A DNA stretch of 64,000 nt from a virus (IMGVR_UViG_2548876794_000003:1-64000), one strand, 5' to 3'; shown: positions 2,033-64,000, numbered from the stretch's first letter. Numbers and translations: made by a program. Notes: generated by a model not told the origin, from the sequence alone.

Positions 2033-3085
2033 TTATGCCCTTTTGACATACAGATGTTCAAAATCCGTCATGTCTGATAAATCGAATGTTTTTTTGTTGA
2101 TTGGCTCGACTGTTGCACGAGCATATGTAGTACCCTTTTGACTAAAGAAGTCATATGTAGTTAAATCATTGCGAATCCCGTTTAAAACGATTGGATTGAT
2201 TTCTTCTTCTGGGAACACGCCTTCTAGCCCCAGGTTCATAAGTGCTTTATTCGCATTGTAACGAACATAAGCTTTTACGCTGCCAGATAAGCCTGTGCCT
2301 GTTTCTCCGTAAAGCATATCTGTATAATCCATCTCGTTATCGTATAAGTCCATTAAAAGGCTGTACGTCCACGCGTCTACTTCATTTTGAACGTCCTCAC
2401 TAAAAGTCGCGCGAAGTTTTTGAGCTTCGTAGCCGACCGTCACGCCATGCAAACTTTCGTCACGTAAGATCAAACTAATTACTTCCGAAGAGTTACGTAG
2501 GATGCCTTGACCGCCTAAGTACAACGGATAGAAAAAGCCACTGTAGAATAAGAAGCTTTCAAGGAATGTTGAAGCTACGTACCCCTTATAAAGAGAAATG
2601 TCGTCATCTTCTTTAATATCGTTATAGATTTGAGAAATACGTTGCGCTTTATATTGAAGTTGTTGATTGGTTTTAACCCATTCAAACAATTCATCAATTT
2701 CTTTTTGTGTGCAAAGTGTCGTAAAGATATAGCTATACGATTTTGCATGCACCGCTTCAAAAGCATCGAATACTGCAAACAATGCTTTTAACATATTATC
2801 TTTTGTATACGCAGCAATTCGGTTCATACCAACGTTTGTTTGAACTGTATCAAGGAGTGTTAAACCAGCTAGTACCTTTTTGAAAACTTCTTTGAAATTG
2901 AAGTCTTTCCAAGATTTTCGGTCCTTACTTACAGCGATTTCCTCGGGAAACCAAATTTGGTTCCATTGTTGAGTCCATACAGACGCAACGAATGAATTCT
3001 CTTTCGACCAGTTAACTGCAGTAATCGGTTGTTGGTCTTGCATCAAAGCCATTGGTTTTTCTTGATTATCCTCTAAATTGAACAT
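2033..3085 (-). CDS. nrdF: Ribonucleotide reductase class Ib beta subunit
   Basis: WFPEEI, LTLLDT, EAVHAKSY, LESFLFYSGF, RDESLHG, YDFFS motifs; all metal ligands present; start 3085 or 3094. Confidence 0.96.
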   Translation of the reverse strand: MFNLEDNQEKPMALMQDQQPITAVNWSKENSFVASVWTQQWNQIWFPEEIAVSKDRKSWKDFNFKEVFKKVLAGLTLLDTVQTNVGMNRIAAYTKDNMLKALFAVFDAFEAVHAKSYSYIFTTLCTQKEIDELFEWVKTNQQLQYKAQRISQIYNDIKEDDDISLYKGYVASTFLESFLFYSGFFYPLYLGGQGILRNSSEVISLILRDESLHGVTVGYEAQKLRATFSEDVQNEVDAWTYSLLMDLYDNEMDYTDMLYGETGTGLSGSVKAYVRYNANKALMNLGLEGVFPEEEINPIVLNGIRNDLTTYDFFSQKGTTYARATVEPINKKTFDLSDMTDFEHLYVKRA

Positions 3086-12882: not shown

Positions 12883-15249
12883 TTAAATAGCTAACAAAGG
12901 TAGTGCGTTAGCCGCTTCAATTCGACAAAATTCGTCTTTTTCTTTTTTTTCGATTGCTTTCTTTAATTCTTTTTTGTACTCGTCTGAATAGGCTTCGACT
13001 AGGCCGCTTAGGTTTGGTTCTAAAGCGTCTCTGTAATGTCGTAGGTCATTCGATAAGGCATTCTTCGAAACGATTGGTGTGTCCTGTAGATACGCACCTA
13101 GCACGTTGTAAAGTTTTGTGTTCACATCTTTGCTTACTAAGCGGTTATAAGACATTTTTGCTTGGTTTAAACCAGACTGACCAATTTCTAAACAAACTTC
13201 ATATTTATCTGTCTGCTTATTCTTCATAACGACGATAATTGTTCTACCAGATAATAAATGGTGGTCGTATGTTCCAACACAGTGATGCATTTGTTTGCCG
13301 ACTAAAATTAATTCTTTCGTATCTTGTACGGCATAGAATTCATAGTCATTGATTTTACGGTTAAAGACGTTAAGCATTTCTTTAGAGTACTCAATATGTT
13401 TATTCGGCTTTCCTTCTGAAAGAGCATACATGTATAGCTTATCGTGAAGTTGATGCATATTCCGTATGCCTTCGCTCGCAATCTTATCCAACTCTTTTTT
13501 AGGCGTTCTGACGAAATTATCAAGCAGGTCGGAATAAAAAGTCGGATCTTGTTCGTCGATGACAGCTTGTAATGACTGATTCATTTGTTTTTCACTCGCA
13601 AATGACTTTTTTAAAAATCTTGCGAATTGGTTACGCATCGTTTGCAATTTAACTGGTTTGTATTCTTGCTCTGGATTGGTGTAACGTGCTGTATAATGAG
13701 GCTCTAAGTGAAGTGTGAAAGGCCCTTTTTTAGACGATCTTACGCGGATGTTATTTAAACAGTTGTACAGAACTTCACTATTTGTAATCGCACTTAAAAA
13801 GATAAATTCCTTTGAACGAATTTGATGTGATTCTAAATTGTATGGAGAAAGTTTTGGGCCATTATCTTCTAGCATTAGATTTTCCTCAATTCCTTGGTGA
13901 AAGCCTAATAAGTCTCGTTGGGAGTTTCGACGGCTTTCTGTTTTCTCAAAGTCGTCGATTGATGACGCGAATAACCCTTGTGATTTTTTAGATGAAGCAG
14001 GCAATAGTGCTTTTAATGCCTTGCTTTTAGAATCTCTGCAGGCAACTGGTACCATAGATAAAGGAATATTTGAACCTGGTAACGTCAGGCCAACCGGCGT
14101 AGCAATAATGTTGAGAATTTCTTGTGTAGAATTTCCTTGGGCGAACATTTTTGTGGCAACAGACGAATGGGTTCTCACTCGTGAATCTTTTGAGCGAATG
14201 AATGCAGAAATCATTTTAGCTGATAACATTTCGAAAGGAGTGACTTGTGAACGATTTCGCAATGGGTTGTAAAGATTTTCAAAAATAGTATCTACCGCAT
14301 CACCATATTGGTTTTCACCAATTCGTGAGAAATCTTTTATATTGATAACCGAGAAGCCGTCATCAATGCTTAAGTGTTGAGCAGCTCCCAACTGCCCGTT
14401 TGAAACGAATCGAACATGACTTTTTCGTGATGGTAGCGTAGTAACAAGGTATAGCTTCTGTGAACGTTTATTAAACGTTAGTGTGTAACGGGTAGATTGC
14501 TGTACAGGGAAGAATGAATATTCCCCCTCCTCACCTTTCCCTCTAAAGTGAGTAGACGCTGCATCGGCAGACAAGCAGTACGATCTACTTCCAATTGATG
14601 AAGAGCTTTGTCTTTTAAAGCTTGAAAGAGGATCTTTATTGACATCGACAGTGTTAAGAAAGTGCTTCTCTTGGCGTAAACGAACTTCTCGCTCATGCTC
14701 TTCGGCCGCTGAAACGACCGATGAATTAGGTAAAGGATTTTGATAAAATACGTTCGTTTTTAAAGTGAAAGCTGTGATTTTGATTTTTTCTTCATCTTCA
14801 TTCGTATATAAGGAATGTAGTGTATTCCCTATGAAACGGAATTCGTCATTACCACAGTATGGACAAACATGGTCTTTGTGAAGCTGTAGACTGGCGCGAG
14901 ATGACATTTTTTGATTCAAATAATACGCTAGTTTTTCAATCGTAATAGGGAAATGTTGAAGGTTATGTACTGAACAGTTGCATGCATAAGACATAACGAC
15001 TGGACAATCTTTGTTTTCAGCGTCCTCCTCTTCTCCCTCAGTCTCGATACTTTGAATAGGAAAAACATTAATGATGGCTTGCTGTGGAGCGTAAGCCCTA
15101 GATGAAACAGAAATTTCATTATAAATTTCTTTTAATGATTCTTCACTGCCATCGTACTTAGATTGATAGTCAAGCATGCTACTTGCAGTGTAATGTGTTG
15201 AATAGTCATTTCTGTCCTTTGAATATGTGTGTAGTAATCCTGTAATCAT
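12883..15249 (-). CDS. PcfJ-domain protein with N-terminal Zn-ribbon
   Basis: C-terminal EL..VGKQMHHCVGTY...CLEI...LNQAK..YN (PcfJ-like); CNC...CPYC near the N-terminus. Confidence 0.7.
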   Translation of the reverse strand: MITGLLHTYSKDRNDYSTHYTASSMLDYQSKYDGSEESLKEIYNEISVSSRAYAPQQAIINVFPIQSIETEGEEEDAENKDCPVVMSYACNCSVHNLQHFPITIEKLAYYLNQKMSSRASLQLHKDHVCPYCGNDEFRFIGNTLHSLYTNEDEEKIKITAFTLKTNVFYQNPLPNSSVVSAAEEHEREVRLRQEKHFLNTVDVNKDPLSSFKRQSSSSIGSRSYCLSADAASTHFRGKGEEGEYSFFPVQQSTRYTLTFNKRSQKLYLVTTLPSRKSHVRFVSNGQLGAAQHLSIDDGFSVINIKDFSRIGENQYGDAVDTIFENLYNPLRNRSQVTPFEMLSAKMISAFIRSKDSRVRTHSSVATKMFAQGNSTQEILNIIATPVGLTLPGSNIPLSMVPVACRDSKSKALKALLPASSKKSQGLFASSIDDFEKTESRRNSQRDLLGFHQGIEENLMLEDNGPKLSPYNLESHQIRSKEFIFLSAITNSEVLYNCLNNIRVRSSKKGPFTLHLEPHYTARYTNPEQEYKPVKLQTMRNQFARFLKKSFASEKQMNQSLQAVIDEQDPTFYSDLLDNFVRTPKKELDKIASEGIRNMHQLHDKLYMYALSEGKPNKHIEYSKEMLNVFNRKINDYEFYAVQDTKELILVGKQMHHCVGTYDHHLLSGRTIIVVMKNKQTDKYEVCLEIGQSGLNQAKMSYNRLVSKDVNTKLYNVLGAYLQDTPIVSKNALSNDLRHYRDALEPNLSGLVEAYSDEYKKELKKAIEKKEKDEFCRIEAANALPLLAI

Positions 15250-55314: not shown

Positions 55315-56154
55315 TTAGAAGCGGAAGCCGTTACCAGCTTTTCCACTGTTGCCGCCAAAGAATCCCATGACTTTGTTTTTAGCATGTGTCATACGTTGTT
55401 TCGCAACTTGGATGTCACGATCTTCACGCACTTGTTTTGCTAAACGTTGTGCTTCCTCGGTAGTAGAGTTTACGACAGCCCCGCCTAAGTCGGACCCCGC
55501 TTTCGATACCGTAGCGGTAAGATTCGCAGTAATCCCTACAACGGACTTTGACACAGGTGTTACAATGCTATTTACTGCAAAGTTAACTGTGTTATTGATG
55601 CCATGTCCTGTAGCGGTAATACTATTTGCTGTGAAGCGACCAAAACCTTTTACGCGACGGTAGTTCTTCATCTTCGCAAATTCTCGCTCTGATACGTCAG
55701 CCATAACAACGATAGGGTGGCCTGTCTCGTTATCAAAACCAACGCTTGTCACAGTGACACGTAGTTTACGCTCAACAAATTCCTTAAATGAATCACGTTG
55801 TTTGATGTTAGCGAACTCTGCAGTCAGTTCTGGGTGCGTTAATTTACCGGCTTTACGTTGTTCAGCACCGTAATCTAAATAGTCTTCGTCTTGTTGAATC
55901 AATGACTCTACACGATGCTGTTCTTCGATACTTGCTTCTAGTCCGAGCATAGTACGTTCGAATTCATCTGTTTCATCAATAACCTCGATGATTTTCATTT
56001 CAAGCATTTTGTTCATCATTTCGTTTTGCTGTTGTTCAGTGGTATTACCACGTTTAGCTAGGAAGTCGCGTACGTCTTGTACGACGTGACGGTTCCCTCT
56101 GAAAAAGATTGGTTGTGAGTTTAAATAGTCGAATGTTGTGTTAATTAAGGCCAT
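55315..56154 (-). CDS. Hypothetical protein; candidate target of the 20-kb sRNA
   Basis: SD GAAGGAG, 279 aa. Confidence 0.75.
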   Translation of the reverse strand: MALINTTFDYLNSQPIFFRGNRHVVQDVRDFLAKRGNTTEQQQNEMMNKMLEMKIIEVIDETDEFERTMLGLEASIEEQHRVESLIQQDEDYLDYGAEQRKAGKLTHPELTAEFANIKQRDSFKEFVERKLRVTVTSVGFDNETGHPIVVMADVSEREFAKMKNYRRVKGFGRFTANSITATGHGINNTVNFAVNSIVTPVSKSVVGITANLTATVSKAGSDLGGAVVNSTTEEAQRLAKQVREDRDIQVAKQRMTHAKNKVMGFFGGNSGKAGNGFRF

Positions 56155-56215
56155 GATAATTGGCTCCTTCCAAAATGTGTTTTACTATACCGAGTTAGTT
56201 GAGTTGTGTTCCGCG

Positions 56216-56629
56216 TTATCGTGCAATAAGTGAACGAGCTGCAATACGGCTCGCATGGTCTGCACCTTCATTGTTTTCGCGTGCAATGTACATGATGTCT
56301 TTTAGATTGCGTACGTTTAAGTCACGAATCTTACACCACAGGTCCTCGCAGAATGCGACACCTTTTATTCCTTTAAAAGTGTTAATCACCTCCTTACAGT
56401 CCGATTGAATTACTGCAGCGCAGCCTTCCTTCTTAATAAACTTGCATGCTTCATAGATGGCATATAGTTCGCAATGTCTTGAAGATACTGGGTTTTTCAC
56501 CTTACCTGTACGGCGAATGACTCCTTGCTCTGTATGGACTTCGATTGCCCATCCACCAGCCATCTCTCCTAAGTATTCTAAGTAGCTGCCGTCTGTTTTA
56601 ATGACGGTACGTTCTTTGGTGCTAGTCAT
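56216..56629 (-). CDS. Ribonuclease HI-like protein
   Basis: IKTDGS, GGWA, ELYAI.EA, IQSDC, RENNEGADHAS: all D-E-D-D catalytic residues present. Confidence 0.88.
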   Translation of the reverse strand: MTSTKERTVIKTDGSYLEYLGEMAGGWAIEVHTEQGVIRRTGKVKNPVSSRHCELYAIYEACKFIKKEGCAAVIQSDCKEVINTFKGIKGVAFCEDLWCKIRDLNVRNLKDIMYIARENNEGADHASRIAARSLIAR

Positions 56630-56868
56630 TATGCCTGAACCCCCAACTCTAAACCGTAACGTTCGTTGAAGTTAATAGCTTCTGCTACTGTTACGCCACC
56701 GTCAATTGATGCAACGATAGGGCGAAGACGAGTAGGGATACCGCCGTCACGAGTTAATGATGTAGCTGGAACAATTACGCGTACGTGTTGTTTTGCGATG
56801 ATAACTGGTGATACGCTCGCTGAACGATAGAATGCTTCTGTTTTAGGTGCTTTGTTTGAAAATTTCAT
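56629..56868 (-). CDS. Hypothetical protein
   Basis: SD GGAGGAG behind a conserved leader hairpin. Confidence 0.7.
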   Translation of the reverse strand: MKFSNKAPKTEAFYRSASVSPVIIAKQHVRVIVPATSLTRDGGIPTRLRPIVASIDGGVTVAEAINFNERYGLELGVQA

Positions 56869-56986
56869 AGTGGTAAATCTCCTCCGACTACTGGGCTCTC
56901 GTCCCTTAAAAGTCGTACAATGGTGAGCGCTTGGCTCATAATAAAAAAGCGCATACCGCCGTTAGGGGTACACGCTGTATAAATAA

Positions 56987-57607
56987 TTAAACTTTTCTTA
57001 AAGAATCAATAAGGTTTGTAATATCGTTAACTGTTAATGCCTTATCTCCTCCAACTACTTCGTTCATATAATTGAACGCACGATGCGTAACGAATGTTTT
57101 TGCTGCTCCATCCACTTCTACTGTTACAACACTGTTCAGATAGCTCATACGATCCATCTCACGAATAAGCGCGATTGCCACCGGTCTCACATCATCTTGA
57201 TTTGAACCAGCAGAGATTCTACATCTCCAGTTAAGTCCTTCTCTATGGAACGATGCTTTCGCTTCATAAGAAACGTCTGGTTCATGCGTAGCATACTTTT
57301 CTTCTAACACATTGAACTGCTCAACAAGTTGGCTGCCTAATGCGACAATTTGGTCGAATAGCTCTGGGATTTCACTAAGATCTAGTTCGACACCATACTC
57401 TGCGTGGTCCACTTGAATTTGACCTGCTTGGCCATCGTTATCGTCCATTGTGATTGTTGCTCCGTTTAGTTCTGTATTTACTTGTAGTGCTGTACCTTGT
57501 TTCTCAACGATCGTGCGAATGCTATTGATTGTGCCTACTGGTTGGAATACGTCGTTTGCTCCAGCGAATAATACTTTGATACCTGCGATTGATGTAGTTG
57601 TTTTCAT
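56987..57607 (-). CDS. Hypothetical protein
   Basis: Start reassigned to MKTTT after SD GGAGG. Confidence 0.7.
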   Translation of the reverse strand: MKTTTSIAGIKVLFAGANDVFQPVGTINSIRTIVEKQGTALQVNTELNGATITMDDNDGQAGQIQVDHAEYGVELDLSEIPELFDQIVALGSQLVEQFNVLEEKYATHEPDVSYEAKASFHREGLNWRCRISAGSNQDDVRPVAIALIREMDRMSYLNSVVTVEVDGAAKTFVTHRAFNYMNEVVGGDKALTVNDITNLIDSLRKV

Positions 57608-57737
57608 GTTAAAAGCCTCCAAAATAGTTTTATAGTTTTTTGTTTTAAAAGATAATGCAATAAAGAATTGTTCTGATAGGGTGAAGCCGACTAGCTTTAA
57701 TTGAAAGCTACTGATTTGAATATTACCGATTTGAACA

Positions 57738-58106
57738 TTATGCAAATTCATAGCGTTTCCCTTCCTCTGAGTTATTTATTCTTTCACGTACTGCAAGGTC
57801 ACGCGCATGGAAATCTTTAATGGCTAATGTAAGCATGTCGTCGAACGTGCATCCTAACATTCTACGAAGCATTACTAAATCTACGACAATCTCCTTATCC
57901 TCGCCTACTAACTGTAACGAACCATTTTGTAGTCCTGGCGTATTGATTGCTTTAATAACTTGTGCGCATGTAGCATCGACATCTGATTCGGTTACTGAAA
58001 GATTGAATTCGTTTTCTGGTTTGTTTTCGCAGTCAATTGTGAAGAAGTCATCTAGGAAACCGCCGTACGTTGTATCTGGGATTTGATGGTATGTTACTGT
58101 AATCAT
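57738..58106 (-). CDS. Hypothetical protein
   Basis: Start MITVT after SD GGAGG. Confidence 0.7.
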   Translation of the reverse strand: MITVTYHQIPDTTYGGFLDDFFTIDCENKPENEFNLSVTESDVDATCAQVIKAINTPGLQNGSLQLVGEDKEIVVDLVMLRRMLGCTFDDMLTLAIKDFHARDLAVRERINNSEEGKRYEFA

Positions 58107-58211
58107 TATTAATTCCTCCAAAGAATAAAGGACGCACACTGTACGCCCTCATAGTTTATTTATATTTAATAGGTAGAAACTTTGTTTTAGGGGGGTGGCC
58201 GTTTTCTCGAC

Positions 58212-58481
58212 CTACCCAAAGAAGGCTTGCATATCTTCAACTGCCTTCATTAACTTACGTGAAGATCGCGCGCGATTTATTACTTCAATACCTGTTGTTA
58301 AATCAATGAAGCGTACATCTTGTTTCGCAAACTTCATCACTTTCTTGATTAGGTCCTTTACTTCGTCTGCGCCTAAGCACACTTGCATTTCTGAATTTGG
58401 TACGCATACGTGATATACGTCTAGCTTTGTACCATGGTTTGAATAGGGGTTAGATGCTTTATAGCCTTTTACTGTAATCAT
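58212..58481 (-). CDS. Hypothetical protein; candidate target of the 20-kb sRNA
   Basis: SD AGGAGGT. Confidence 0.7.
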   Translation of the reverse strand: MITVKGYKASNPYSNHGTKLDVYHVCVPNSEMQVCLGADEVKDLIKKVMKFAKQDVRFIDLTTGIEVINRARSSRKLMKAVEDMQAFFG

Positions 58482-58734
58482 TTGATTACCTCCTGTGAGT
58501 TGTGTATTGGTTTGTTGTAGTCAGCAACATGGCCAGTCAGTCACGACCAGCCTAATTAACCGTCCGAAAACGTGTGAGTGCTCCTACCCGCGAAGCGGAG
58601 ATTGTTCCGCAAGCAAAGCACTCGGCAATGTTAGTTCATATAGTGGACTAAGCTATATGCTGTTGATTTGGTTTGTCATCATCAGATGCAGGGGAACCAC
58701 CTACTGCATGACTGAGTTGCCCCAGTTTCGACCA

Positions 58735-58878
58735 TTATTTAAATAGCCCGATGATACGGCGGATTGCACGTTTGGCCATCTTGAAGCGGAACACGTTCCA
58801 CATGATGACGAATGGCATTGCCACAACTCCTAGCATGATTAATTGTTTTTCTTCGCTGTTCATTGGTTGGTTGTTCAT
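58735..58878 (-). CDS. 47-aa membrane peptide
   Basis: MNNQPMNSEEKQLIMLGVVAMPFVIMWNVFRFKMAKRAIRRIIGLFK; SD GGAGGT; below ORF-track cutoff. Confidence 0.65.
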   Translation of the reverse strand: MNNQPMNSEEKQLIMLGVVAMPFVIMWNVFRFKMAKRAIRRIIGLFK

Positions 58879-58924
58879 TATATATACCTCCAGTCGTCGA
58901 GGGCTCTAGTCCCTAAAAACGACA

Positions 58925-59255
58925 TTCATTTCAATTAGTGCGTTCATCATGGTATGTCGGAGACACACATACGAAAGCACGACAAAGAACCCTAACTTCC
59001 TCGAAGTAGGGCACCGCAGCGTAACACTCCCGCAAGAGTTGTTATTTAAAGTGTGCATTGCACACATCAGCCACATATGAAGTATGGGGAGCTTCGTGCT
59101 TGGAGCCATCGTGGTTTTCGATGGCGACGCGAAGCGGTAACACACCTCTAATGCTTGGGACAAATGTGCTGTGTCCATTAAAGTAACAATCATGTGTGCA
59201 TACGAATGCGATTGTAACCTTAATGCACATAGGGGAGATCCCCTACGCACAATAC
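58925..59255 (-). ncRNA. Candidate structured RNA/leader downstream of the RNA polymerase genes
   Basis: Nearly continuous hairpins, e.g. CATTAAGGTTACAATC/GATTGTTACTTTAATG, GCCATCG/CGATGGC, GTGTGC/GCACAC, GTATGT/ACATAC. Confidence 0.5.
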
Positions 59256-59261
59256 TACTTA

Positions 59262-61541
59262 TTAGAATCCGAATAAATCGTCGTCATCTTCATCTTCATC
59301 ATCTAACTCAGCTAGTAACGCTGCTTTACGATCTTCTAAAGTTTCTGCTGCTTCTACAGTTTCTTCTTCGTTATCAGTTGCATCGTCACCAAATAAATCA
59401 TCATTACTGTCATCAGAAACTTCATCTTCGTCATCTGTAGCGAATAGTTCTTCATCGTCTGCAGAGATTTCGTCAGCTTCTTTTGTTTCTTTCTTGCTAG
59501 ATTTGAAGCGGTCTTTAATCATTGCTTTGTTTTCATCTGATTCAGCGATGATGTCGATGATGTTTTCTTCTGCATCACCTACAACTTGAATCACGATACC
59601 AACGTTTGCGTAACCTTTGTTTTTAGAGAATACTGCTTGTACTAAACGAACTTTCTTCATTGAAGCTGGTTCAGTTGTACCATTGAATACGCCATTACGT
59701 TGTTCATCGTTTGATACATTTGAGCTGTATGTGCTAACAGGTAACACTAATGCTGCTTTATTTTCGTCAGCACTTACATCCCAGATAGCAGGGATTGTTT
59801 GGCGATTCTTGTTATCCATGTTTGTTGTATAAAGCTCTTTGCCAGCTTTGAATGTAGCTAATAATTTAGCAACGTTTTCTGTAGCGTATTTAGTGATGTT
59901 GCCTTCTTCATCTTGTGTGTACATTGAATCTTCTTTGAAGTAAGAGCTATCACCTTGTAAGAATAAGATACCTTCTGGTGCTGTTTCGATAGAGCGTTCA
60001 ATGATTTCTTGTGCTTTATCTTGAATGTTACGTTTTGCTACGATACGGAATTTCTGTTCGCCATCTTCATCTAATTCAATTGATTCTTGAATTTCGAATA
60101 CATATTCACCTTCTGGTAAGAAGTTTACGAAGTATGGGTTGAAGCCTTTTTCGTTGAATGTCACAACGTCACCATTTTGGTATGGTAGTTCCTCAACGTT
60201 TGGCGCGATGAATAGTTCATCTTCTGTTACGAATGAAGCTTTGTAGCCTTCAAGGTCAGTTGATTCGTTGTGGATCATTTCAGCGTATAGTAATTGTTCC
60301 TCTGCGAATAGGGCACTGAAAGCAGATGACATTGTGTTTGATTTGTTATCTTCACCATAACGAAGGTCGCCAATTTGACGAGTGATTAATGCTAATTTCG
60401 CTGCATCTACACCAAGTTGAGTTGCTTTTAAACGTACGGCAGCTTTCATGAATTCAGTTAATGGTTTGTATTTTTTAGATACACGAGCACGTACTTCCAT
60501 TGCTTCGTCAGTATCAGAATCAACTAATTGTAATTCATATTTTGTTTCATCGCGTTGAGCACGTTCAATTGCATCGAATTGAGTTAATGTTGATTGTACA
60601 TATGAAGTGAACTCTGGGTTCTCACTTACTACTGCTGCAGCTTCGATAACCTCTGATTTAATGAATGTTGCTTCACGAGCTGTTTCATCAAGGTCGATTA
60701 ATGCATTGTAGATTTCAGTAAGGCTGTATTTCTTGAACTGTTGTTTCAAGTCAGTGAAGATAGCTTTACCTTTTTTATCGTAGTCTAGTTCATCTCGGTA
60801 GAATAATGATACGCGGCTACCAGCTGTTTCTGCATTATCACTTGCGATAGTTAAGAACTGCTCAGTCATTTTTTCTTTGTATTCCGCTTTCATTTCATCA
60901 GTGAATAGCAGTTGTACTTTTACTGAACCTTTGTTAATAGATGCTACTTTATATGCTTTTGATGGGCTTGCGATTACTGATACTTCGTAAGCTTTTTTGA
61001 ATGCGTCAATGTGACGTTGCATATCAATATCGAATACTAAGTCAACATCTGCTAATAATTCGATGATTGTTTTGTCTGTTGCTGATTTGAAGTCGAAGTG
61101 TTCTAACGTTTTCAAGATAGCTTCACGATCTGCGACGTTAAGTTCTGCTTGCTCTACGATTACACCAGAAGCATTAACGAATGATGTTTTCGTACGTTTG
61201 ATAGCTTTGTATTTAGTGATTGTTGGTACAGTGTTATCTTTGTTGAAGATTTCGCCAAGAACACGACGAGTTTCTTCTGTTGCTACAGTGTATGCTTCTT
61301 CTGTGATGCCACGTAATGCTGCGCCGAATTTTAATGTTTCTGCTGCTGCTTTAAGTGCTTGTGACGCGTTTGCTACGATACCGATACCAGCAACTTTAGC
61401 TGATGTTTGTTTAACCATTGTTAATGCTAAGTTCTCTGCAGCGTAACCGAATTTTGATGCACGTTGAGCTTGAACTTCTTTGATGTTTTTAACGAATGAT
61501 GTAGCTGCGAATTGGTTGAATTTGTTGTTTGTGAATGTCAT
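59262..61541 (-). CDS. Probable C-terminal subunit of a split RdRP/YonO-family RNA polymerase
   Basis: GIGIVANA (RdRP LG.I.N-like) and QRHIDAFKK (AVD..K-like) motifs; adjacent to the catalytic gene; SD AGGAGG; acidic tail. Confidence 0.55.
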   Translation of the reverse strand: MTFTNNKFNQFAATSFVKNIKEVQAQRASKFGYAAENLALTMVKQTSAKVAGIGIVANASQALKAAAETLKFGAALRGITEEAYTVATEETRRVLGEIFNKDNTVPTITKYKAIKRTKTSFVNASGVIVEQAELNVADREAILKTLEHFDFKSATDKTIIELLADVDLVFDIDMQRHIDAFKKAYEVSVIASPSKAYKVASINKGSVKVQLLFTDEMKAEYKEKMTEQFLTIASDNAETAGSRVSLFYRDELDYDKKGKAIFTDLKQQFKKYSLTEIYNALIDLDETAREATFIKSEVIEAAAVVSENPEFTSYVQSTLTQFDAIERAQRDETKYELQLVDSDTDEAMEVRARVSKKYKPLTEFMKAAVRLKATQLGVDAAKLALITRQIGDLRYGEDNKSNTMSSAFSALFAEEQLLYAEMIHNESTDLEGYKASFVTEDELFIAPNVEELPYQNGDVVTFNEKGFNPYFVNFLPEGEYVFEIQESIELDEDGEQKFRIVAKRNIQDKAQEIIERSIETAPEGILFLQGDSSYFKEDSMYTQDEEGNITKYATENVAKLLATFKAGKELYTTNMDNKNRQTIPAIWDVSADENKAALVLPVSTYSSNVSNDEQRNGVFNGTTEPASMKKVRLVQAVFSKNKGYANVGIVIQVVGDAEENIIDIIAESDENKAMIKDRFKSSKKETKEADEISADDEELFATDDEDEVSDDSNDDLFGDDATDNEEETVEAAETLEDRKAALLAELDDEDEDDDDLFGF

Positions 61542-61622
61542 GATAAATTTCCTCCTATGCTAAACCGTTTTGATTTAGCTCCATAAATAATTTTTTAGTT
61601 TAATGTTTGTTTTATAAATAAT

Positions 61623-61652
61623 AAAAAGCCACACAACTGACAGTCATGCGGC
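61623..61652 (-). terminator. Intrinsic terminator between the two polymerase genes
   Basis: GCCGCATGAC-TGTCA-GTTGTGTGGC-TTTTT. Confidence 0.6.
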
Positions 61653-61700
61653 AGGTCCATAATACTGAGTGACAATGAAATGATGTTGCTAAACTTACTA

Positions 61701-64000
61701 TTAAAGTAAATCTGTAGTGCTGTGAGCTTCTGCTTGTGTTGCTGATAATGCTTCGACAATACGTTGGTCAAATACTAATGTAAAACCATCCATATCCCAG
61801 TCAGAACCAGACATGATTAAGTTCAACGTTGGGTGGAATGGAAGCATAACAATACCATCTGATAATGCTTTCATGTACGTTTTAGCGCCTTTCATTAATT
61901 CTTTAACAACTGCTACTGGTAACGTTTTGCCGTCTTTGTTTTTACGACCAAGTAATGCTGCTGCTTTATCTTCGATGCGTGATAAGATTTCATCACGAGA
62001 TACAACGTTTGCAATATGGAAGTCACGAGCACCTGGTTTTGGTGAACGATAGAATACTAATTGCATTGTGATATTTCCTTCTGCATCTACTAGGTCATGC
62101 TTACGAGCATAGCTTTCTGCAGCTGGTGAATACACTTCATCTGTTCCTAATACACCTAGACGGTAAGCCGCTTCTGCGTTACGAAGGTCCTCGAATGCTT
62201 GACGAACAACACGTTTCTTCATTACACCTTTACGAATTTGCATATATGAAGGTTTGATTCCCTCTACTGATTCGTATTTAGCTGTTTGACTTTCAATACC
62301 AGCTTCTACTAAATCGTTGTAATCTTTTAATGCTTTTAAGTGAGCCGCTTCGTGTTGTGTTAAACCTTCTTCATCTGTGTTGAAGTCGATGAATTTAAAA
62401 TTAGCAATATCATCTGGTGTGTTGAATAGTAGAGCAGGTAAGTCGTATAAACCAGACGCATAAGTACCAGCTACAACGTCACGAGATTTGCTATCAAGGT
62501 CACGATTTGTAACGTTGATTACATCTCCTAAAATAGAGTTAACAATAGATGATTCTTTTTCGAATGCGAAACGAGGAGCAGCACTACGCATAATACCTGT
62601 GTAGTAAAGGCTATCTCCTGTTAATTGTGAAGCAGATACTTTAGGATCACGCAATGCTTGATTGCCTTCTTCATCTGTTTCTGTACCGATTGCCGCACTT
62701 AATGCACGACGAGCTGTTTCAGCGCCTAATGTTTCGATTAATAATGGAGCTTGGTCTTGGTTTTCTACAGCCTTAGTTAATGCTTCTTTTTTATCCATAC
62801 CTTCTGCTACGAATTGTTTTGCTAAATCTGCAACACGCATATCTTTCATGTTTTGTACTGCATCTTCTGTTAATAGAGATTGTCCCATTTGACCAGAGTG
62901 ATTCGTTGTTTGTTTAGCAGGGTGAGAAAATGTCATAACTGGCATTGTTGTTTTTGTACCTTCACCGTATGAAACAGGAACTTTCATTTCATCTAGTGTT
63001 GCGATGTAAGTAGGGATAGCTGTTTTATCTACTACTTTTTGAATGATAACTGCGTCATATCCTTTGAAGTATGATTTGATACCATTGAATGCTTTCTTTT
63101 CATTAGCATCTGTTGCACGAGCTTCCATCCATTCTTCACGAGTGATGTATTTAATTTTGTATCCTTGGAATACTAAAGCGTGGATGTATGCTGCAATTGT
63201 TCTAGGCATGAATAGTACGCTTGCTACTTTGTTTACGCCATCGAAACGAGCTTGCATTAATTCACCCACAAAGTGTTGAGGTTTGAACATTGCGCTACCA
63301 CCAATTGAAATTGAAGCATTGTTGATAGATTTCGCTACATATTCAGCACTTACGATTTCGCCACCATCTTTCAGTACGCCATAACGTTTTGTTAAATCAA
63401 TCATTGGAGAAACATCATCTCCATTGAATTTCGCTAAATCTACACCAGCTGTGTGTGTTTGAGATTCACGAGTTGCGATATTGATTAAATCTGCTTTGCT
63501 TGCTTCACGATCTTTGAATTGATCAACGAAGTATTGATTCATGCCGTTTGTTGCAGCATTTGTGATTTCGCGGAATTTTGCTTTACCTTCTTCTGTATCT
63601 GGTAAGGCAATCATTAATAAGCGTTTTACTTTCGCCATACCTGGAGTGTATTGGAATCCGTATAAACGAAGCGCGCCTAATTTATTGAATTCTTCAATTG
63701 TTAATGAAGTGTTGTTTAATAGTGAACGATATGTGTTACGAGAACGAGTGTATAATTCCACTGAACCGTTATCTGCGAATACTACATATAAGCCAGTTTC
63801 TAAAGCGTCTAATGAAGATTTGTCGAATTTAACTTCTAATAAACCGTTAAGGAAGTTCTCAACTTTCATTTCACCAAGATCTGTCATGATTGTTGTTTCT
63901 CTTTGTAATGCTTGACCTTCTAAGCCTTCTACCATTTCGATATAGCGATCTGTAGAAACACCTGTTTTTGTAGATGCTACAGAAGTGCTTACTTGGTGTA
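61701..64000 (-). CDS. RdRP/YonO-family two-barrel RNA polymerase, catalytic subunit (5' end outside the window)
   Basis: KDGGEIVS, MQARFDGVNK, GVLGTDEV, LVFYRSP, GIVMLP, MSGSDWDMDG in the order of the RdRP/YonO family; frame stays open to nt 64000. Confidence 0.82.
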   Translation of the reverse strand, partial: HQVSTSVASTKTGVSTDRYIEMVEGLEGQALQRETTIMTDLGEMKVENFLNGLLEVKFDKSSLDALETGLYVVFADNGSVELYTRSRNTYRSLLNNTSLTIEEFNKLGALRLYGFQYTPGMAKVKRLLMIALPDTEEGKAKFREITNAATNGMNQYFVDQFKDREASKADLINIATRESQTHTAGVDLAKFNGDDVSPMIDLTKRYGVLKDGGEIVSAEYVAKSINNASISIGGSAMFKPQHFVGELMQARFDGVNKVASVLFMPRTIAAYIHALVFQGYKIKYITREEWMEARATDANEKKAFNGIKSYFKGYDAVIIQKVVDKTAIPTYIATLDEMKVPVSYGEGTKTTMPVMTFSHPAKQTTNHSGQMGQSLLTEDAVQNMKDMRVADLAKQFVAEGMDKKEALTKAVENQDQAPLLIETLGAETARRALSAAIGTETDEEGNQALRDPKVSASQLTGDSLYYTGIMRSAAPRFAFEKESSIVNSILGDVINVTNRDLDSKSRDVVAGTYASGLYDLPALLFNTPDDIANFKFIDFNTDEEGLTQHEAAHLKALKDYNDLVEAGIESQTAKYESVEGIKPSYMQIRKGVMKKRVVRQAFEDLRNAEAAYRLGVLGTDEVYSPAAESYARKHDLVDAEGNITMQLVFYRSPKPGARDFHIANVVSRDEILSRIEDKAAALLGRKNKDGKTLPVAVVKELMKGAKTYMKALSDGIVMLPFHPTLNLIMSGSDWDMDGFTLVFDQRIVEALSATQAEAHSTTDLL

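Follow-up and report, generated by a model that had tools for sequence, protein, structure and literature searches.

A conserved pair of phage genes as a candidate two-subunit RNA polymerase of the YonO/RdRP type

Introduction

The sequence analysed here (the window) is the 64,000-nucleotide stretch formed by positions 1-64000 of a 178,960-base-pair IMG/VR phage contig (IMGVR_UViG_2548876794_000003), for which the completeness estimate is 78%. Its end, positions 59262-64000, is filled by two long open reading frames (ORFs), both on the minus strand. The upstream ORF encodes an 835-amino-acid protein (P0003) and the downstream ORF a 759-amino-acid protein (P0002); they are called N and C here. 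The question raised by this locus is whether the two genes together encode an RNA polymerase of the type represented by YonO of phage SPbeta and by cellular RNA-dependent RNA polymerases (RdRPs), the known examples of which are single chains.

The favored answer, to which a probability of roughly 0.7 is given, is that a large phage makes one non-virion two-barrel RNA polymerase of the YonO/RdRP type from two subunits, each encoded by one gene of the pair. This answer is built on the layout of the gene pair and its conservation, on the homology of N to YonO-like proteins, and on two motif matches in C.

Layout of the Gene Pair

All coordinates of the pair and its features are on the minus strand. 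The N gene extends from contig position 64208 to 61701, so that 61701-64000 lie in the window and the first 69 codons lie past its edge. The open frame in the contig is 854 codons long, and the likeliest start is the ATG at 64208, which has AGGAGA in front of it and yields the 835-amino-acid protein. The sequence-only reading of this locus had the polymerase ORF stopping about 30 amino acids past SGSDWDMDG with the triplets TAA TAG TAA. This was borne out: the stops occupy 61703-61695, and the C-terminal end of P0003 (...SGSDWDMDGFTLVFDQRIVEAL...DLL) reaches 28 residues beyond the third Asp of that motif.

A spacer of 159 nucleotides (61542-61700) follows, containing TAG and TAA stops, a hairpin with a T-run, an A-rich stretch, and AGGAGG. 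The C gene occupies 59262-61541. It had been read as a separate gene with its own Shine-Dalgarno sequence, and both signals could be located: it begins with its own ATG, and the AGGAGG at 61556-61551 is 9 nucleotides ahead of it.

Conservation of the Split

An exhaustive phmmer search of 1.84 billion representative proteins with P0003 returned only three real homologs: P0006 (877 amino acids, E 1e-31), P0007 (645 amino acids), and P0009 (618 amino acids). Two further hits, P0008 and P0010, were rejected as spurious on account of their biased composition and lack of a DxDxD motif. The alignment of P0003, P0006, P0007, and P0009 is designated A1. All four N proteins stop 25-40 residues past the Asp triad, and they have in common the motifs RSPKPG..D and SGSDWDxD.F..FDQ..V, which are invariant in A1.

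The ends of these proteins are also conserved. In four out of four, D-[LK]-[LI] forms the terminus or lies no more than one residue from it; in P0003 this is D-L-L (D833, 61704-61712). Such a common terminus indicates a real, functional protein end. Judged from the alignment, the short tail past the catalytic loop is old and conserved, and is not the product of a recent stop codon. A recent pseudogenizing stop was rejected because the truncation and the D-L-L-like end are kept across the N family.

Each contig that bears a homolog of N also carries a downstream partner on the same strand. These partners are 739 or more (running off the contig end), 689, and 658 amino acids long. They begin 100-150 nucleotides after the N gene, and each has its own ribosome site. 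The syntenic downstream gene is present in L002, L003/L004, and L005. Wider synteny is kept as well, in that a divergent terminase block lies upstream and a gene for RNase H downstream.

Homology among the downstream proteins is weak. P0002 and P0011 are 22% identical (E 2e-4) and colinear across 750 residues, while P0002 matches P0013 with E 8e-7 and P0012 matches P0013 with E 5e-13. The alignment of the downstream proteins is designated A2 and follows P0002 residue numbering.

All four lineages, at 20-30% identity, keep the ORFs intact and show no variation in the catalytic residues. Among variants of the pair from many samples, 7 N and 14 C proteins are full length except for one partial C of 223 amino acids. 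The two-gene arrangement proposed from the window alone is therefore a layout conserved in four lineages. It is more than chance, since the other three known lineages share the break point and the downstream gene.

The Upstream Protein

N was compared with a YonO reference set made up of SPbeta YonO and seven YonO-like proteins of other phage records (n=8). Motif matrices were made from the YonO-like proteins only, and significance was assessed by shuffles (2000 for A1). With hhalign, A1 matches the eight YonO-like proteins at E 3.4e-6. The match is colinear, pairing A1 160-824 with YonO columns 1-556 and ending just past DxDxD. Other settings and subsets gave 2.4e-4 to 2.5e-4, whereas reversed-sequence controls gave 0.37-0.87. 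The triad tail region of P0003 (the catalytic segment) gave P 5e-6. There was no hhalign match between A1 and YonO alone.

The best sites of the YonO matrices in A1 fall at 278, 436, 718, and 799, which is the order found in YonO, and their scores were reached by 42, 0, 38, and 0 of 2000 shuffles, respectively. The first site is DGGEI (63354-63368), a candidate for the barrel-B Asp motif that corresponds to DG.G of YonO and RdRPs. Its D281, G282, and I285 are invariant, and the assignment of D281/G282, within DG.[GED]I, as the equivalent of QDE-1 D709 has moderate support. The second site, S.QM.Q (S438 and Q440, 62874-62903), is invariant in A1 and is paired by hhalign with YonO YQMLQTL. The third is RSPKPG (62031-62048), whose invariant R721 and P723 correspond to the barrel-A R.P motif (QDE-1 R962 and P964); hhalign aligns it to RSPHL of YonO. 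The fourth, SGSDWDMDGFTLVFDQRIV (61755-61811), contains the Asp triad D803/D805/D807 together with the next strand and helix, and is invariant as S-G-S-D-W-D-x-D...F-D-Q..V.

A further candidate, QAR.....K (63228-63254), may be the barrel-B basic pair that is R....KG in YonO. Q319 and R321 are invariant, K327 is the candidate Lys, and a Lys follows R321 by 6-7 residues in all four N sequences. The spacing is unlike that of YonO, and an ungapped matrix test was not significant.

Eight residues are invariant across two-barrel RNA polymerases (PMC2919709). Six of these were matched in N by matrix, namely D281, R721, P723, and D803/D805/D807. In the ESM Atlas, all 24 of the closest look-alikes of N that bear a family assignment are phage PF05183 clusters (score 0.92, 180 shared features). 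The YonO-like profile in turn matches the QDE-1 and RDR2 structures with E 3e-5 to 2e-4. Taken from these comparisons, the placement of N as a very divergent member of the YonO/cellular-RdRP-type two-barrel superfamily is well supported. The claim that the upstream ORF carries RdRP-family motifs in order was upheld by hhalign and the matrices.

The same reading had treated a non-canonical G-to-M change in the metal-binding loop (DWDMD) as noteworthy. This was overstated, and the significance of the change was rejected, because the position is variable. Members of the N family have M, T, or F at the fourth position of the loop, and the YonO-like BUCT082 protein has Y; it is the W at the second position that is invariant.

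Direct searches were silent for both proteins of the pair. Pfam, PHROGs, and PDB sequence searches returned nothing for either protein or either family profile, and neither A1 nor A2 matched any PDB chain directly. Word-indexed searches of 5.8 billion proteins found only the 90% clusters of P0003 and P0002 themselves, and scans of IMG/VR and JGI metagenomes found no relative. Comparison with 50,697 phage records by blastn and tblastn gave chance-level matches only; one of these (E = 8) lies just past the YonO-like region of MT835651, which is suggestive but is not evidence. Since Pfam, PHROGs, and PDB sequence searches all miss this family, phage genomes probably contain more enzymes of this sort than are counted.

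The Downstream Protein

In RDR2, a bridge helix with a conserved Gly (G886) follows the Asp-triad barrel, and on a helix and loop past it RDR2 K923, like QDE-1 K1119, sits where cellular polymerases have the trigger-loop His (bioRxiv 10.1101/2021.08.31.458351). The IG..SN block of the YonO-like proteins aligns to the RDR2 bridge helix (YonO G593), and their ID.AK block aligns to RDR2 ...AVDFAK, whose final residue is 923. The first residues past DxDxD that do not vary in the eight YonO-like proteins are G593/N597 and D625/K628, which belong to these two blocks.

Two motifs, G.I.N and.VD..K, had been reported in the downstream gene, and both are present, as IGIVAN (53-58) and HIDAFK (177-182). 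They coincide with the most conserved parts of C: 8 of the 18 invariant columns of A2 fall in two N-terminal blocks, Q45/G54/A57 and D171/Q175/I178/D179/K182. The first block contains GIGIVANAS (61362-61388), a candidate bridge-helix motif with G54 as the hinge Gly, in which G54 and A57 are invariant. The second is D...Q..ID..K (60990-61031), a candidate trigger-loop Lys motif in which all five named residues are invariant.

The bridge-helix matrix gave a mean score of 4.2 at P0002 52-60 (next best A2 column, -0.3), and the ID.AK matrix gave 7.2 at P0002 176-184 (next best, -1.1). When the columns of A2 were shuffled, these scores were reached in 6/5000 and 1/5000 cases, respectively, and jointly in 0/5000. 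A second, tool-made source alignment gave 18/2000 for the bridge helix and 3/2000 for the trigger loop. Ranked among about 700 positions in each protein, the aligned sites stand at 1, 189, 1, and 2 for the first motif and at 7, 1, 3, and 1 for the second. The two matrices found no such sites in the N family. A hand-written pair of regular expressions also matched only P0002 in the proteome, but it was discounted because it was written after the motifs had been seen. Nothing in C corresponds to the YonO motifs past the trigger loop (P.FF, N675, and F695).

For the greater part of C, some 550 residues and an acidic tail, Pfam, PHROGs, ESM Atlas, and PDB searches revealed no resemblance to anything known; the ESM Atlas gave no usable hit for this protein. 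The acidic tail spans about residues 680-759 (59265-59504) and contains two copies of the DDLFG repeat, of which the second closes the protein. P0012 and P0013 likewise end acidic, with aromatic residues close to the terminus, so that all three complete C proteins are acid-tailed. This tail is reminiscent of single-strand-binding proteins, whose tails are acidic and end in aromatic residues, and of acidic DNA mimics.

The Spacer and Nearby Ribozymes

The spacer hairpin (61652-61628) has 11 base pairs, is terminator-like with its T-run, and is unique in the contig. In every lineage (4/4), the spacer has a strong hairpin that leads into a T-run, with an A-rich stretch and a ribosome site of the GGAGG type after it. 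The hairpin and T-run at 61618-61660 of the window (minus strand) are identical at 33 of 35 positions to L002:3320-3360, while the flanking proteins are just 27% identical. The hairpin may have a sequence-specific role, for instance in termination, in processing, or in signaling to a phage polymerase, and the subunits are perhaps expressed apart; this is speculation.

Self-cleaving ribozymes seem to be common around the polymerase module. A twister-P1 match lies about 290 nucleotides upstream of the N start on the same strand (L001:4293-4353, minus strand, equal to contig 64496-64556). It covers the full model with 55.5 bits and E 8e-11, which is under the Rfam gathering score of 67.2. In L004, which is from the related phage encoding P0007 and P0012, two matches lie just downstream of the pair, one to a pistol ribozyme (61.5 bits, above its cut-off of 34.5) and one to hammerhead III (43 bits, short of its cut-off of 48.5), and the divergent block has a partial group I intron match. 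The ribozyme and intron matches in L004 are at 12912-12983 (plus strand), 13734-13790 (plus strand), and 2092-2188 (minus strand). In window positions 56000-62000, Rfam searches at E <= 1 found no hammerhead or other ribozyme.

Genomic Context

The gene pair is located near the head of a leftward block with primase-like, ribonucleotide reductase, ParA, and RNase H genes. The RNase H-like gene (56216-56629, minus strand; PHROG 531, E 3e-13) is a few genes downstream of the pair and is syntenic with the RNase H gene of L003/L004. The same contig also contains a 2,876-amino-acid ORF that encodes a putative tail-module two-barrel polymerase.

The exact P0003 and P0002 sequences also occur in NCBI and UniRef on a contig of 248,626 base pairs, and a fuller genome of this phage is thus public. 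Near-identical copies of the two proteins are present in many Logan and ENA samples.

Discussion

If the two proteins are subunits of one enzyme, N would provide the active-site cleft, both double-psi barrels, seven or eight of the eight invariant residues (the basic pair R321/K327 being the less certain part), and the catalytic metal, and would stop just past the metal-loop barrel. The N-terminal 190 residues of C would dock across the cleft, supplying first the bridge helix, with G54 as its hinge, and about 125 residues further on the trigger loop. K182 would then correspond to the trigger-loop Lys that contacts the incoming nucleoside triphosphate in RDR2 and QDE-1. A polymerase lacking these elements would be incomplete. 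The remaining approximately 500 residues of C and the acidic tail may carry added functions. In this reading, the N and C chains would bind one another. The link of C to the missing part of the polymerase is suggested by two short motifs together with position, order, and synteny.

The pair most likely transcribes phage DNA, by analogy the middle or late genes, after the putative giant tail-module polymerase has started the infection. A non-virion, DNA-dependent role is proposed because YonO is a late-gene polymerase, because Thermus phage P23-45 has a two-polymerase set-up, and because the 2,876-amino-acid ORF is present on the contig. YonO, a late-gene RNA polymerase that is DNA-dependent and processive, is the sole phage member that has been tested (PMC5467207). 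Both the DNA template and the timing are therefore drawn by comparison and would be expected rather than certain.

Several results weigh against a two-subunit polymerase. For N, comparison with a deeper YonO-proper alignment (80 sequences, dominated by 72 prophage YonO-proper proteins) gave a match at the DxDxD region only, and one of lower significance (P 0.009), which makes the N family a distant branch and not YonO proper. At E <= 1-10, Pfam PF05183 matched neither of the two proteins nor any of their family members, and it found nothing in a six-frame search of the contig; N is not a PF05183 member in the strict Pfam sense. The barrel-B basic pair R321/K327 was placed by eye and is probably the equivalent of QDE-1 R738 and K743. 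The AlphaFold2 model of N, made from the four-sequence alignment, has a predicted local distance difference test (pLDDT) score of 36.

For C, the motif blocks were picked after the P0002 motifs were known, so the shuffle counts given above are somewhat optimistic, and a scan of each protein for the best pair of motifs jointly is weak (P about 0.04-0.3). A hidden Markov model (HMM) of the YonO C-terminal part did not put P0002 at the top of the phage proteome. The hhalign comparison of A2 with that part is not significant (P 0.2-0.6), and when the N tail and the C head were joined in one alignment, the match was not extended into C. The proposal that C is the missing C-terminal region consequently stands in part: two motifs lie at the top-conserved blocks of C, but comparison with the YonO C-terminal part by profile and by HMM gives no significant result. 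The AlphaFold2 model of C is of low confidence (pLDDT 42, four-sequence alignment); it has a 45-residue helix right after G54 (55-99) and a helix ending at 184 that is followed by a long loop. Lastly, a terminator-like hairpin separates the two genes, and they need not be co-expressed.

Some of these results favor the best-surviving alternative, in which N is a self-sufficient minimal polymerase and C is an unrelated accessory for promoter specificity, DNA binding, or processivity, or has some other job. The universal catalytic residues are all in N, no profile or HMM test links C to the YonO C-terminal part, most of C resembles nothing known, and the hairpin lies between the genes. This alternative has to account for the fact that both of the invariant motifs that follow DxDxD in YonO-like proteins map to the two top-conserved blocks of C with their order kept, and that the gene pair is strictly conserved. 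Furthermore, every structurally compared two-barrel polymerase has a bridge helix (PMC10770324), and N has no room for one because it ends 28 residues past the triad. A minimal N is thus regarded as an outside chance.

A related suggestion concerns the use of the split by a two-subunit polymerase. Between the catalytic barrels and the second subunit lie the conserved hairpin, nearly identical in two lineages with proteins of 27% identity, an A-rich stretch, and a ribosome site for C alone. The split may thus be a control device and no accident, by which the polymerase is switched on only once the second subunit has been made, and C, with its roughly 500 extra residues, might in addition serve as a specificity or auto-inhibitory module, sigma-like but fused to the bridge helix, with a possibly DNA-mimicking tail. 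This is put forward tentatively, and it is doubtful on present grounds.

The pair might instead be a two-subunit enzyme of this fold that is RNA-templated or that synthesizes primers or second strands. Its nearest structural relatives, QDE-1 and RDR2, copy RNA, with QDE-1 using both templates (PMC9508822), and the block in which the pair is located contains genes for replication and nucleotide metabolism (primase-like, ribonucleotide reductase, ParA, and RNase H). Yet the one phage member with known activity is DNA-dependent (PMC5467207), and a double-stranded DNA phage plainly needs transcription of its DNA. These considerations make an RNA-copying or primer-making enzyme distinctly unlikely.

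It is very improbable that the locus is one gene expressed as a single chain despite an interruption, be it a small self-splicing intron, an intein, or a recoding site. There is precedent in the interrupted YonO-like genes of Clostridium phage c-st, MT835481 (with an HNH-like ORF), and several SPbeta-like phages. Those breaks sit inside the DxDxD codons, however, while here the loop and the next strand are complete. The upstream frame ends with three stops, C has a strong ribosome site and ATG in 4/4 lineages, Rfam found no intron at E <= 1 across the junction, and the extreme C-terminus of the N proteins is conserved; an intron at the junction was rejected on these grounds. In addition, the N tail and the C head sum to 61-77 residues, as against a linker of about 40-55 residues in single-chain relatives. 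Least credible of all is a decaying, non-functional polymerase remnant, for which the extreme divergence, the lack of a Pfam match, and the very few relatives might speak, since the ORFs are intact, the catalytic residues are invariant in four lineages at 20-30% identity, and the sampled variants are full length bar the one partial C.

No description of a two-gene YonO/RdRP-type polymerase was found in the literature, the coverage of which was incomplete, so that absence is not proven. Single-chain YonO/RdRP-type enzymes have been discussed as models of the ancestor of cellular RNA polymerase (PMC5467207), and a split pair bears on how single-chain polymerases become multi-subunit. Such a pair could reveal the catalytic contribution of the separated elements, the way in which a chain fragments into subunits, and the regulatory use of a split. 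It would also mean that a phage group which seemingly injects a giant tail-fused polymerase has another one of the non-virion kind, a two-polymerase strategy shown experimentally only in P23-45.

Comparison with Known Systems

YonO and the YonO-like proteins (PMBT24, TR-TP1, BUCT082, and Perkons) are like the present pair in being phage-encoded, with the motifs of both barrels on one chain. The order of motifs is also alike: DG.G, YQM-like, R.P, DxDxD...D..V, IG..[ST/A]N, and ID..K. YonO differs in being a single chain of 839 amino acids, whereas here the chain breaks after the DxDxD barrel and ahead of the candidate bridge helix. YonO also has a C-terminal zinc ribbon, in place of which C has about 500 extra residues and the acidic tail, and the PF05183 match is lacking here. 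In 6/6 YonO-like loci (L006 and L008-L012), a gene for an HU/histone-like or "DNA binding protein" lies 1-3 genes downstream of the polymerase. No HU-like gene was recognized downstream of the N/C pair.

QDE-1 (2J7N, 5FSW) and RDR2 (7EU0, 7ROZ) belong to the same superfamily, linked through the YonO-like profile, and likewise have a Gly and a Lys past the Asp triad. They are single chains of 1,000-1,400 amino acids that copy RNA and, in the case of QDE-1, also DNA.

Thermus phage P23-45 has a giant virion polymerase fused to the tape measure (gp96) and a smaller non-virion polymerase, gp64 (PMC10770324), which parallels the 2,876-amino-acid ORF and the pair described here. Unlike the pair, gp64 consists of one chain and belongs to another family, and the timing roles proposed here are taken from the comparison.

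The interrupted yonO-like genes (c-st CST179/CST178/CST177, MT835481, and Goe11) also have separate N- and C-terminal ORFs. In c-st (L015:2326-6259), the N-terminal ORF ends ...DMDK, inside the DxDxD codons. In MT835481 (L014:408-4178), the ORF ends ...DFDKY and is followed by an HNH-like ORF and then by an ORF that starts MGD and contains IG..TN and ID.AK. In several SPbeta-like phages, yonO is in two pieces around an inserted ORF. Unlike the short spacer of the present pair, these breaks are 0.4-1.2 kilobases in size and fall inside the DxDxD codons. The interrupted loci look like mobile insertions, and Rfam found no intron at E <= 0.1 at the c-st and MT835481 breaks.

A parallel in the position of the split is found in divided beta-prime chains. 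In cyanobacterial and plastid RpoC1/RpoC2 and in the beta-prime of phiKZ/AR9-type jumbo phages, the break lies between the Asp-triad barrel and the bridge helix plus the trigger loop. Those enzymes belong to the multisubunit clade and have their barrels on separate beta and beta-prime subunits, whereas here the motif sets of both barrels are on N. The comparison with RpoC1/RpoC2 is a fair analogy of split position. By that analogy, the pair would have the same break point as the beta-prime splits, yet among two-barrel polymerases it would fall in the other major clade, and both barrels would stay on one chain.

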